Position numbers and translations under genes: made by a program
Part shown: piece by piece, positions 15,829 to 19,343 of the stretch
Layout of the letters: each line of letters starts with the position of its first letter
How positions within the stretch are numbered: the first letter of the stretch is position 1
Notes under the pieces: generated by a model
What the model saw: the letters and a program-made list of their open reading frames with translations, nothing else
The model's database searches: none
Told to the model about the DNA's origin: nothing
Source: Escherichia coli
Lineage (GTDB): Bacteria > Pseudomonadota > Gammaproteobacteria > Enterobacterales > Enterobacteriaceae
DNA: 64,000 bases
NCBI RefSeq assembly: GCF_050320075.1
Contig: NZ_CP190018.1
Strand: one strand, 5' to 3'

Positions 15829-17931
15829 ATGAAGATTTTTTCCGTCCGACAGACCGTTTTGCCCGCACTGCTTGTCCTTTCCCCCGTTGTTTTTGCCGCT
15901 GATGAACAGACCATGATTGTCAGTGCCGCACCGCAGGTGGTTTCAGAACTGGATACCCCAGCAGCCGTGAGCGTGGTGGATGGCGAGGAGATGCGCCTGG
16001 CAACACCGCGCATTAACTTGTCCGAATCACTGACCAGCGTGCCTGGTTTGCAGGTACAAAACCGGCAGAACTATGCGCAAGATTTACAGCTGTCGATTCG
16101 CGGATTTGGCTCCCGCTCCACTTACGGAATTCGCGGTATTCGCCTGTATGTGGACGGTATTCCCGCCACCATGCCCGACGGACAAGGGCAAACATCCAAC
16201 ATCGATTTAAGCAGTGTACAAAATGTGGAAGTGCTGCGCGGCCCCTTCTCTGCTCTGTATGGCAACGCGTCTGGCGGTGTAATGAATGTCATCACCCAGA
16301 CCGGACAACAGCCACCAACCATTGAAGCCAGTAGTTACTACGGCAGTTTTGGCAGCTGGCGCTATGGGCTGAAAGCAACAGGCGCAATGGGCGACGGCAC
16401 TCAGCCTGGCGATGTCGATTACACCGTCTCAACCACGCGCTTTACGACCCACGGCTATCGTGATCATAGTGGCGCACAGAAAAATTTAGCCAATGCCAAA
16501 CTGGGCGTACGCATTGATGACGCCAGCAAATTAAGCCTGATTTTCAATAGTGTGGATATCAAAGCAGATGACCCAGGTGGGCTAACCGAAGCAGAATGGA
16601 AGGCGAATCCGCAACAAGCGCCACGCGCTGAACAGTACGACACGCGAAAAACCATCAAGCAAACTCAGGCTGGGTTGCGCTATGAACGTAGCCTGAGCGC
16701 ACAAGATGATATGAGTGTGATGATGTATGCCGGGGAGCGAGAAACGACCCAGTACCAGTCAATCCCGATGGCACCACAACTTAACCCGTCGCATGCGGGC
16801 GGCGTGATTACTCTGCAACGCCATTATCAGGGGATAGACAGCCGCTGGACACACCGTGGCGAGCTGGGCGTTCCGCTCACGTTCACTACCGGCCTGAACT
16901 ACGAAAACATGAGTGAAAATCGCAAAGGCTACAATAACTTCCGCCTGAATAGCGGCGTGCCGGAATACGGGCAAAAAGGTGAGTTGCGCCGTGACGAACG
17001 CAATCTGATGTGGAACGTCGATCCCTATTTGCAGACACAGTGGCAGCTGAGCGAAAAACTGTCGCTGGATGCTGGCGTGCGCTACAGCTCCGTATGGTTT
17101 GATTCCAACGACCATTACGTTACTTCGGGTAACGGCGATGACAGCGGTGATGCCAGTTATCACAAATGGCTACCTGCCGGTTCGTTAAAATATGCAATGA
17201 CCGATGCCTGGAATATCTATCTGGCAGCCGGGCGAGGTTTTGAAACGCCGACGATTAATGAGCTGTCTTATCGTGCTGACGGTCAAAGCGGTATGAACTT
17301 TGGTTTAAAACCATCCACCAACGATACAATTGAGATCGGCAGTAAAACGCGTATTGGTGATGGGCTGCTTAGTCTCGCATTGTTCCAGACCGACACCGAT
17401 GATGAAATTGTAGTCGATAGCAGTAGCGGTGGGCGTACGACTTACAAAAATGCCGGAAAGACCCGTCGTCAAGGCGCTGAGCTGGCATGGGATCAACGTT
17501 TCGCGGGAGATTTTCGTGTAAAAGCGTCCTGGACCTGGCTCGATGCGACCTATCGCAGCAATGTTTGCAATGAACAGGATTGTAACGGTAATCGGATGCC
17601 AGGGATCGCCCGTAATATGGGCTTTGCGTCGATAGGTTATGTACCGGAGGATGGCTGGTATGCAGGTACGGAAGCGCGTTATATGGGCGATATTATGGCA
17701 GATGATGAAAATACGGCCAAAGCGCCGTCTTATACTCTCGTCGGCTTATTCACCGGGTATAAATACAATTACCACAATTTAACTGTGGATTTATTTGGTC
17801 GTGTCGATAATTTATTCGATAAAGAATACGTTGGTTCTGTCATTGTCAATGAGTCAAACGGGCGATATTACGAACCTGCGCCCGGGCGAAATTATGGTGT
17901 CGGCATGAATATTGCATGGCGATTTGAGTAA
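15829..17931 (+). CDS. yncD: TonB-dependent outer-membrane receptor
   Basis: 700 aa from MKIFSVRQ; signal peptide; C-terminal aromatic residue (…AWRFE). Confidence 0.85.
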   Translation: MKIFSVRQTVLPALLVLSPVVFAADEQTMIVSAAPQVVSELDTPAAVSVVDGEEMRLATPRINLSESLTSVPGLQVQNRQNYAQDLQLSIRGFGSRSTYGIRGIRLYVDGIPATMPDGQGQTSNIDLSSVQNVEVLRGPFSALYGNASGGVMNVITQTGQQPPTIEASSYYGSFGSWRYGLKATGAMGDGTQPGDVDYTVSTTRFTTHGYRDHSGAQKNLANAKLGVRIDDASKLSLIFNSVDIKADDPGGLTEAEWKANPQQAPRAEQYDTRKTIKQTQAGLRYERSLSAQDDMSVMMYAGERETTQYQSIPMAPQLNPSHAGGVITLQRHYQGIDSRWTHRGELGVPLTFTTGLNYENMSENRKGYNNFRLNSGVPEYGQKGELRRDERNLMWNVDPYLQTQWQLSEKLSLDAGVRYSSVWFDSNDHYVTSGNGDDSGDASYHKWLPAGSLKYAMTDAWNIYLAAGRGFETPTINELSYRADGQSGMNFGLKPSTNDTIEIGSKTRIGDGLLSLALFQTDTDDEIVVDSSSGGRTTYKNAGKTRRQGAELAWDQRFAGDFRVKASWTWLDATYRSNVCNEQDCNGNRMPGIARNMGFASIGYVPEDGWYAGTEARYMGDIMADDENTAKAPSYTLVGLFTGYKYNYHNLTVDLFGRVDNLFDKEYVGSVIVNESNGRYYEPAPGRNYGVGMNIAWRFE

Positions 17932-17964
17932 TTACCTTGATGCCCGGTATTTGCCGGGCATTTA

Positions 17965-18675
17965 ATTGTGCACAGAAAACCCCCAGCTAGGCTGGGGGTT
18001 CCGGAAAGCTTTCAGCTTTAAGCCAGTTATTAAAACCCCTTTTGATTTGTTAAAACACCTTGCGGTCTGGCAACTGCAAGTGTCAAACAAGAAATCAAAA
18101 GGGGGTCCCAATGGGGAACGAAAAGAGCTTAGCGCACACCCGATGGAACTGTAAATATCACATAGTTTTTGCGCCAAAATACCGAAGACAGGTGTTCTAC
18201 AGAGAGAAGCGTAGAGCAATAGGCAGTATTTTGAGAAAGCTGTGTGAGTGGAAAAGTGTACGGATTCTGGAAGCTGAATGCTGTGCAGATCATATCCATA
18301 TGCTTGTGGAGATCCCGCCCAAAATGAGCGTATCCGGCTTTATGGGATATCTGAAAGGGAAAAGCAGTCTGATGCTTTACGAGCAGTTTGGTGATTTGAA
18401 ATTCAAATACAGGAACAGGGAGTTCTGGTGCAGAGGGTACTACGTCGATACGGTGGGTAAGAACACGGCGAAGATACAGGATTACATAAAGCACCAGCTT
18501 GAAGAGGATAAAATGGGAGAGCAGTTATCGATTCCCTATCCGGGCAGCCCGTTTACGGGCCGTAAGTAACGAAGTTGGATGCAAATGTCAGATCGTGTGC
18601 GCCTGTTAGGGCGCGGCTGGTAAGAGAGCCTTATAGGCGCATTTGAAAAACCTCCGGCTATGCCGGAGGATATTT
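17965..18675 (+). mobile_element. IS200-like insertion sequence (IS200/IS605 family), boundaries approximate
   Basis: Left-end hairpin CCCCCAGCTAGGCTGGGGG just upstream of a 152-aa HUH/Y1 transposase; about 0.7 kb. Confidence 0.6.
18111..18569 (+). CDS. tnpA: IS200 transposase TnpA (Y1 HUH transposase, 152 aa)
   Basis: MGNEKSLAHTRWNCKYHIVFAPKYRR with HxH motif (ADHIHML) and catalytic Tyr region. Confidence 0.85.
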   Translation: MGNEKSLAHTRWNCKYHIVFAPKYRRQVFYREKRRAIGSILRKLCEWKSVRILEAECCADHIHMLVEIPPKMSVSGFMGYLKGKSSLMLYEQFGDLKFKYRNREFWCRGYYVDTVGKNTAKIQDYIKHQLEEDKMGEQLSIPYPGSPFTGRK

Positions 18676-18677
18676 AT

Positions 18678-19343
18678 TTAACGATTGTATTGCTGGTATA
18701 AAATAGCAATATTTTGTTGCATAATTTCAGCAAGACAATGTCTGCATCCCTCTTTGTCTTTTGCTTTTAACGCGGCGAGTAATAGACGATAGTTTTCTAT
18801 ACGTTCCCGTAATTCCGCTGGATTAATCGCTTCATAAAGATAATGTAAACCAGGTCCCATCCTGACCCACAGTTGCTCAATCATCTCACACAGGATGGGC
18901 ATATTTGAACGATGATAAATTGCTAAGCGAAATAGCCTGTTCGCATTAATGATTTGTTCCATGTCGCCCTTTTCTTGCGCCTGCTGTAATTTCTCGAGCA
19001 ATTCCTCGAGTTCCGCCAGGTCTTGCGAGGTGAGGTTTTCAACAGCCAGAGTAACTGCCATTAATTCCAGCTCGTAGCGGATCCGATTGATTTCGTCTAA
19101 TTGACGTTTCCCCACTTCCGGAACTGTAAATGCTTGCGCTGGTGCGACAGAAAGCGCATTCACCGAAACCAGACGTAATAATGCTTCACGCACAGGTGTA
19201 ATACTCATACCTAATTGCTCCGCCAGATTTTTAGTAATCAGGCGTGCGCCAGGTTTTAGTGCGCCAATACTAAGCTGATGTTTCAGGTCATTCTCAACCT
19301 GCAGAGTCAAACTGACATGTTTCATTTTTTCCGTTCCAGGCAT
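18678..19343 (-). CDS. mcbR: GntR/FadR-family transcriptional regulator McbR
   Basis: 221 aa from MPGTEKMKH; AAGGA Shine-Dalgarno; N-terminal GntR helix-turn-helix. Confidence 0.85.
   Translation of the reverse strand: MPGTEKMKHVSLTLQVENDLKHQLSIGALKPGARLITKNLAEQLGMSITPVREALLRLVSVNALSVAPAQAFTVPEVGKRQLDEINRIRYELELMAVTLAVENLTSQDLAELEELLEKLQQAQEKGDMEQIINANRLFRLAIYHRSNMPILCEMIEQLWVRMGPGLHYLYEAINPAELRERIENYRLLLAALKAKDKEGCRHCLAEIMQQNIAILYQQYNR

Follow-up and report, generated by a model that had tools for sequence, protein, structure and literature searches.

Features of the pqqU-mcbR locus

The window, which is the whole 64,000-nucleotide stretch of Escherichia coli DNA that was analysed, contains a 711-bp insertion sequence in the intergenic region of the convergent genes pqqU and mcbR, whose stops lie at 17931 and 18678-18680, respectively; the element had been placed here in a preliminary description, in which pqqU still bore the name yncD. 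RefSeq annotation was transferred from E. coli strain CFSAN061763, which is identical to the window over a 1,251-bp stretch (17700-18950), by adding 14699 to the locus coordinate. The features of the locus, with the type of evidence in parentheses, are as follows.

15829..17931, plus strand: pqqU (formerly yncD), TonB-dependent receptor (RefSeq annotation of identical sequence, ORF list)
17940..17967, plus strand: intrinsic terminator of pqqU, the insertion target (inverted repeat, DNA fold, present in empty sites)
17968..18678, plus strand: IS200C, 711 bp, in the preferred register (empty-site alignment, ends common to other copies, published listing)
17978..18000, plus strand: left-end (LE) subterminal hairpin with a perfect 10-bp stem (inverted repeat, DNA fold)
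17978..18101, plus strand: Rfam RF01405 (STnc490), full length 1-124 (146.1 bits, gathering score 56, E 3.1e-31)
about 18030..18119, minus strand: art200 (coordinates transferred from PMC4513863)
18036..18104, plus strand: 5'UTR stem-loop hiding the ribosome-binding site (inverted repeat 94% complementary, RNA fold)
18111..18569, plus strand: tnpA, 152-aa Y1 HUH transposase, intact (ORF list, profile searches, motif residues)
18598..18641, plus strand: internal hairpin 3' of the tnpA stop, in the right-end region (inverted repeat, fold)
18651..18678, plus strand: right-end (RE) hairpin and 9-nt tail (inverted repeat, direct repeat, fold)
18678..19343, minus strand: mcbR (yncC), GntR-family regulator (ORF list, RefSeq annotation)

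The pqqU terminator consists of the hairpin ATGCCCGG-TATTTG-CCGGGCAT (17940-17961) and a T-rich tail, TTAATT (17962-17967), and the left tip of the element comes right after the final TT of this tail. On the other side, the mcbR stop codon (18678-18680) abuts or overlaps the tip of the element, and the length of the mcbR ORF is the same as in K-12. Neither pqqU and its terminator nor the coding frame of mcbR is damaged by the insertion.

Identity of the element and its transposase

The tnpA ORF of 459 nt encodes a protein of 152 aa that matched the Pfam family Y1_Tnp (PF01797; E 3.8e-38, 130.7 bits, cut-off 23) and the NCBIfam model transpos_IS200 (NF033573; 147.7 bits, cut-off 55), as well as the solved IS200/IS605 transposases 2EC2, 2F4F, 2A6M (IS608), and 2XM3 (ISDra2), with E values of 4e-23 to 1e-14. 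The catalytic residues are intact and comprise the HUH motif H61-I-H63 and a single tyrosine, Tyr125, the residue whose replacement in Y125F yields a catalytically dead TnpA (Ellis et al. 2015, PMC4513863). The identical protein at the same locus of CFSAN061763, WP_000526135.1, is labeled by RefSeq/PGAP as 'IS200/IS605-like element IS200C family transposase'. The initial assignment of this ORF to a 152-aa IS200-like HUH transposase is thus borne out by both profiles, the two catalytic motifs, and the RefSeq name, and the identical annotated protein at the same locus rules out a chance reading frame.

tnpA stands alone in the 711 bp, with neither tnpB nor iscB, the remaining listed ORFs being mechanical overlaps; the absence of these two genes separates the IS200 group from the IS605 and IS1341 groups. 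A published table lists the same insertion in the ST38 strain 28Eco12 as IS200C (2442570..2443280, 711 bp), and the naming used here is based on this table together with RefSeq/PGAP. The sequence comparisons support the assignment of the element to IS200C, of the IS200 group of the IS200/IS605 family. IS200C is an already known element, and its copy between yncD and mcbR is already catalogued. No second IS200 copy was found within the 64-kb window.

Terminal hairpins and RNA structures

The left-end hairpin mentioned in the preliminary description was found at 17978-18000 and reads AACCCCCAGC-TAG-GCTGGGGGTT. The RE hairpin, CCTCCGGC-TAT-GCCGGAGG, occupies 18651-18669, and its tail, ATATTTATT, runs to the right tip. 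The two are direct repeats of one another, with 78% agreement over 23 nt (AAAACCCCCAGCTAGGCTGGGGG and AAAACCTCCGGCTATGCCGGAGG), and the element has no terminal inverted repeats, as had been noted at the outset. A pair of hairpins in direct repeat is a hallmark of the family, and transposases of the IS608 type recognise such pairs on one strand. After IS608, the LE hairpin is presumed to be the TnpA binding site on the top strand. The feet of both hairpins are preceded on the 5' side by 4-5 A-rich bases (AGAAAA and GAAAAA), which is where IS608 has its guide sequences, the stretches that base-pair with its cleavage and target sites; by this analogy, an A-rich guide would fit a T-rich target. 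The internal hairpin at 18598-18641 is larger than the RE hairpin, and its sequence is kept in the right ends of Yersinia IS1541, as read in tandem copies.

The STnc490 model matched the sense strand of tnpA, LE terminator hairpin included. In the literature, the STnc490/art200 RNA runs antisense to the tnpA 5'UTR (PMC4513863), and the Rfam model appears to depict the sense-strand structures. In Salmonella IS200, the hairpin at nt 12-34 is a bidirectional terminator that stops read-in transcription (Ellis et al. 2015, PMC4513863). The 5'UTR stem-loop gave an RNA fold of -40 kcal/mol (z -4.1) in which the Shine-Dalgarno sequence AAGGGGGT (18099-18106) is paired; its Salmonella counterpart spans nt 69-138 (Ellis 2015, PMC4513863), and the 5'UTR of Salmonella IS200 is processed into a regulatory RNA, the 5'tnpA sRNA (PMC5435999, PMC12594629). 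A simple scan of 17800-18800 found no sigma-70-like promoter, which agrees with the weak, undefined tnpA promoter of Salmonella IS200 (PMC4513863) and adds no further information. An Rfam Ysr202 match at 18646-18745 on the minus strand was rejected, since it scored 30.5 bits where the gathering score is 315 and consisted of nothing but the RE hairpin matched to a terminator in the model.

Extent and ends of the insertion

In K-12, the empty site has the sequence ...GCCGGGCATTTACTT|TAACGATTG..., and alignment with it left exactly 711 extra bases in the window. The same empty sequence was read at the empty sites of four further strains, so that the comparison with an empty intergenic region proposed in the preliminary description yielded a clean insertion against K-12 and four other strains. 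The occurrence of ATT at both junctions results in four possible registers, from 17965-18675 to 17968-18678 (3-nt ambiguity), and the 711-bp interval originally assigned, 17965-18675, is one of these.

The ends were compared among 19 E. coli copies at unrelated loci, ten from different genomes (window included) and nine taken from a single ST38 genome, in which one is the window insertion itself. Common to all 19 is the sequence from GTGCACAG... through ...GGATATTT(A/T)TT, and the ends of the window element are base-for-base the same as those of the 18 others, in keeping with the expectation that they would match the IS200/IS605 family. The right flanks differ straight after the right tip, and the left flanks have an invariant terminal TT preceded by a variable base. 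By the IS200/IS605 paradigm, an element includes its right tip, and the target sequence remains outside it, 5' of the left end; for this reason the register 17968-18678, with the tips GTGCACAG (left) and GGATATTTATT (right), was preferred. The divergence of the flanks among copies places the right tip ...GGATATTTATT at 18678, and the invariant TT ahead of GTGCACAG places the left tip to within 2-3 nt. The earlier view that the ends are not resolved therefore no longer applies to the right tip and has narrowed for the left, and it holds for the 1-3 nt of ambiguity that remain.

This remaining uncertainty is genuine rather than technical, because the tips shift by 1-4 nt within T-runs at other sites. 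At tonB-yciA, the occupied allele equals the element, the empty site, and four further bases (GTT on the left and T on the right), and at plaP-sbcB and sseA the excess is a single T on the right. When tandem IS1541 copies, a shared variant of the RE tip, and four empty-site comparisons were used to place the tips to the base, a start of the element at TTGTG, TGTG, or GTG fitted some sites and failed at others, which leaves the tips with a margin of 1-3 nt either way. The ten IS200 copies of 28Eco12 in the published table have lengths of 707-714 bp. In the window, the length of the insertion equals that of the element in other copies, so no target duplication is needed, and the TT/ATT at both junctions is compatible with a duplication of 0-3 nt.

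Distribution and history

A search of 5,426 complete E. coli genomes detected the left junction in 141 of them, among which are two ST38 strains, 28Eco12 and 266917_2; the junction was 100% identical in the best 40 matches listed. The pqqU-mcbR site is empty in about 97% of genomes, drawn from all lineages. IS200C is multi-copy, with identical ends at unrelated loci; as an upper bound on the copies, 16,030 places in 5,419 genomes match a query in which the gene flanks are included. The ST38 genome 28Eco12 contains nine intact IS200 copies and one that is frameshifted. Four copies belong to the subfamily of the window element, namely the window insertion and three copies elsewhere that are 99.4-99.9% identical, and five form a second subfamily with 96-97% identity to the window copy. 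The right-tip variant ...ATATTTTTT is found in two copies at different loci of this genome, which indicates that the tip tetranucleotide travels with the element. Two IS200 copies flank ymgK-iraM beside icd, less than 1.6 kb apart.

The near-identical copies at three other loci indicate that transposition took place in the recent past of this lineage. The most economical reading is a single insertion between pqqU and mcbR in an ST38-type ancestor, followed by vertical inheritance, with the subfamily having moved several times around then. The identity, anatomy, insertion site, lineage distribution, and intactness of the element were all obtained directly. In practice, the copy could serve at best as a clonal marker for ST38-type E. 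coli, and the locus is a reminder that yncD has been renamed pqqU.

Nucleotide change at the left junction

Base 17965, located 3 nt to the left of the tip, is A in the occupied alleles examined and C in all empty sites that were read. When the empty site was reconstructed with 120 nt on each side, the best match among 5,426 genomes was 239/240, and no perfect match with A was present in these genomes. In strain 118UI, which was read base by base, the sole mismatch is at the position of 17965 and is C, and the base is likewise C in four other empty sites. The C-to-A change is thus strictly linked to the insertion, and the chance of a lone SNP falling at that base is roughly 1%. Over the target sites as a whole, the base at -3 is T at 85 sites, A at 23, G at 17, and C at 11. 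The change may have preceded and favored the insertion, or it could have arisen as a side effect of integration; it would not be expected from a precise peel-and-paste event.

Target sites

The first ten E. coli copies examined were all situated directly behind a GC hairpin and a T-run. To compare flanks over a wider range, an exact scan for the 23-nt LE hairpin was performed with one genome per species, which returned at least 120 stretches; the resulting set of left flanks comprised 127 unique sequences (scan plus E. coli), or 136 after the nine ST38 copies were added. The 40 nt to the left of the tip had a median fold of -18.1 kcal/mol, versus -6.7 kcal/mol at random positions and -6.2 kcal/mol after TNTT at the same loci (Mann-Whitney p about 1e-61 and 1e-65, respectively), and folds of -12 kcal/mol or lower were obtained for 94% of the 127 flanks versus 12% (random) and 9% (after TNTT). 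Minimum free energies were used for this comparison because the detection of perfect stems found a hairpin in 85 of the 127 flanks, the misses being imperfect stems.

With one exception, the left flanks end in TT (135 of 136); T occurs at position -5 in 122/127 and at position -2 in 125/127, and the RE tip reads TATT. In 109 of the 136 flanks, the tip lies 6-9 nt (median 7) past the final G:C pair of the hairpin, and the element's own RE hairpin is 9 nt from the right tip. The left flank and the right end of the element itself have matching geometries, suggestive of targeting that is directed by structure. T-rich tetranucleotides without a hairpin were not used as targets, and the hairpin itself therefore seems to be part of the signal. 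The window site, composed of hairpin, TTAATT, and tip, obeys the same rule of hairpin and T-tract.

It is tentatively proposed, as a possibility rather than a probability, that the IS200/IS1541 clade picks its targets by structure, in that terminators are taken as pseudo-right-ends and the element is pasted just behind them. Slipping of an A-rich guide on the T-tract could then account for tips that are blurred by 1-4 nt, and perhaps for the C-to-A change at the junction. An alternative explanation of the pattern is selection that removed all other insertions. In a 2025-26 preprint, terminator-like sequences were reported upstream, 'outside', of 40.2% of 20,314 IS200-family copies, and were read as regulators of transposase expression and not as a target signal. 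IS1541 is known from the literature between pheL and pheA, i.e. behind an attenuator. Explicit terminator targeting by IS200 or IS1541 was not found in the literature searched, the scope of which lay outside older reviews and ISfinder/TnPedia. If true, terminator targeting would explain both the harmlessness and the persistence of IS200, and, if not already described, it would extend the IS608 model of target selection from a tetranucleotide to structure plus sequence. This pattern of terminator mimicry is the only part of the analysis of wider interest.

The top strand of the element is on the G-rich strand in 71 of 83 clade loci (p 2e-11). The bias accords with the known tendency of the IS200/IS605 family to use the lagging-strand template (PMC5027513); co-orientation of genes and replication is a confounding factor here. 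The copy in the window is oriented like the minority, the plus strand of the window being C-rich with a skew of -0.01 to -0.06 at all scales.

Possible effect on mcbR

In the preferred register, the mcbR stop codon is split by the insertion and restored by the terminal T of the element. On the minus strand, this stop is now directly followed by CCTCCGGCATAGCCGGAGG-TTTTT, a canonical terminator-like sequence formed by the RE hairpin. In the empty allele, mcbR is followed by the pqqU hairpin, with no T-run in the mcbR direction. From its sequence, the RE hairpin with TTTTT looks like a stronger terminator of mcbR than that of the empty allele, and any phenotypic effect of the insertion is likely to be small and confined to the formation of the mcbR 3' end.

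Proposed mechanism, silencing, and alternative explanations

The single-strand mechanism, the regulation, and the present-day mobility of the IS200C copy are inferred from related elements. By analogy with IS608 and ISDra2, TnpA dimers would recognise the two hairpins, LE and RE, on the top strand only (the plus strand of the window) and would cut after the T-rich site at each end. The excised element would be released as a single-stranded circle and would integrate 3' of a matching T-rich site in single-stranded DNA, a route that would involve no terminal inverted repeats and no target duplication. At this locus, insertion would have taken place once, straight behind the pqqU terminator with its T-tract, at the point where the mcbR stop codon lies. 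The LE hairpin would terminate incoming transcription, the 5'UTR stem-loop would hide the ribosome-binding site, and the antisense RNA art200, together with Hfq, would block translation of tnpA. Silencing by the LE terminator, weak promoter, sequestered Shine-Dalgarno sequence, art200, and Hfq was demonstrated experimentally in Salmonella and E. coli (PMC4513863), and by this analogy expression of the tnpA gene in the window should be minimal.

With very high confidence, the locus is read as an intact full-length IS200C that would move by single-strand transposition, was inserted once in an ST38-type ancestor and then inherited vertically, and should be near-silent. No observation contradicts the identification; the minority orientation of the window copy and the C-to-A change beside its left tip are caveats. 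The description of IS200 as essentially immobile in the laboratory (PMC4513863) is a further caveat, on the predicted mobility of the window copy, and it also favors another explanation, in which the copy is a fixed, effectively immobile relic with a host-level role played by its structured RNAs (5'tnpA sRNA and art200) and its terminators, the new one of mcbR included. The processing of the Salmonella 5'UTR into a regulatory sRNA (PMC5435999, PMC12594629), the junction that is invariant over 141 genomes, and the RE hairpin and TTTTT directly behind the mcbR stop on the minus strand point in the same direction. However, the transposase ORF, its catalytic residues, and both ends are intact, and the copies of 99.4-99.9% identity at other loci of the same genome speak for recent movement; a relic with such a role is accordingly considered doubtful.

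It is far less probable that the segment was acquired by recombination, or that it is ancestral and was deleted in other strains. The C-to-A change at the junction would fit such a history, since occupied and empty alleles thereby differ beyond the insertion, but the flanks are otherwise identical to those of empty sites over 240 nt, the inserted block has the exact ends of other IS200C copies, about 97% of genomes, drawn from all lineages, lack the insertion, and the site has the hairpin, T-tract, and TT of a typical target of the clade. On the strength of the near-identical flanks, the IS200C ends, and the widespread empty site, this reading was rejected. A domesticated, single-copy REP-associated tyrosine transposase (RAYT/TnpA-REP) in place of an IS transposase was likewise rejected as scarcely credible on score and copy number, since the match to NCBIfam REP_Tyr_transpos is weak (32 bits against a cut-off of 80, while transpos_IS200 scores 148), copies with identical ends are present at many loci, and the intergenic location beside a palindrome reflects an ordinary terminator in flanks without REP/BIME arrays.

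Comparison with known systems

The E. coli IS200C element was compared with IS200 of Salmonella enterica, the type of the group (707-709 bp), with which it shares the same 152-aa TnpA. As in Salmonella IS200, there is an LE terminator hairpin at about nt 11-33 (published as 12-34), a stem-loop sequestering the Shine-Dalgarno sequence at about nt 69-137 (published as 69-138) with a full STnc490 match, and an RE hairpin, and inverted repeats are absent. The two elements show no substantial difference; their lengths are 711 bp versus the 707 bp quoted, and this difference of 2-4 bp is within the uncertainty of the tips in T-runs.

IS1541 of Yersinia pestis and Y. pseudotuberculosis has an identical 23-nt LE hairpin and RE hairpin, tips of the same form (TT|GTGC(C/A)CAG...ATATTTATT), and the same target context of hairpin and T-tract. 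It differs at one base of the 8 nt between tip and hairpin (GTGCCCAG versus GTGCACAG in IS200C), and in Y. pestis it has a far higher copy number and forms head-to-tail tandems. The Y. pestis tandems are joined as ...CCGGAGGATATTTA-TT-GTGCCCAG..., with one shared TT, as expected from insertion at the right tip of another copy; in such tandems, the RE of one copy is the 'terminator' for the next. The exact 23-nt LE hairpin also occurs in Vibrio, Brenneria, Dickeya, Edwardsiella, and Budvicia, and in metagenome-assembled genomes (MAGs) labeled Mailhella/Desulfovibrio, Oxalobacter, Bacillota, Peptococcaceae, Saccharibacteria, and Elusimicrobiaceae. These matches are often at contig ends and in many copies, and the 10-12 nt between the tip and the LE hairpin are lineage-specific. 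The pattern suggests that the hairpin was spread widely by horizontal transfer, with mis-binning of MAGs being possible.

IS608 of Helicobacter pylori and ISDra2 of Deinococcus have transposases of the same fold family as that of IS200C. They likewise have subterminal hairpins in direct orientation and insert 3' of a short, specific motif similar to the site at which the RE is cleaved; neither of them duplicates its target, and the window insertion needs no duplication. The orientation bias of the wider IS200C clade fits the lagging-strand template as in those elements. IS200C differs from both in the absence of tnpB and in its apparent site, which is T-rich and ends in TT, rather than TTAC or TTGAT. 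Its targets almost always have a hairpin 6-9 nt upstream, a property not predicted by the guide-sequence model of IS608 alone. Group IIC introns and REP-targeting insertion sequences also insert just behind terminators or palindromes, places that are transcriptionally quiet and where harm to the host is low; their chemistry, which is retrohoming or is carried out by DDE or IS110 enzymes, is unrelated.
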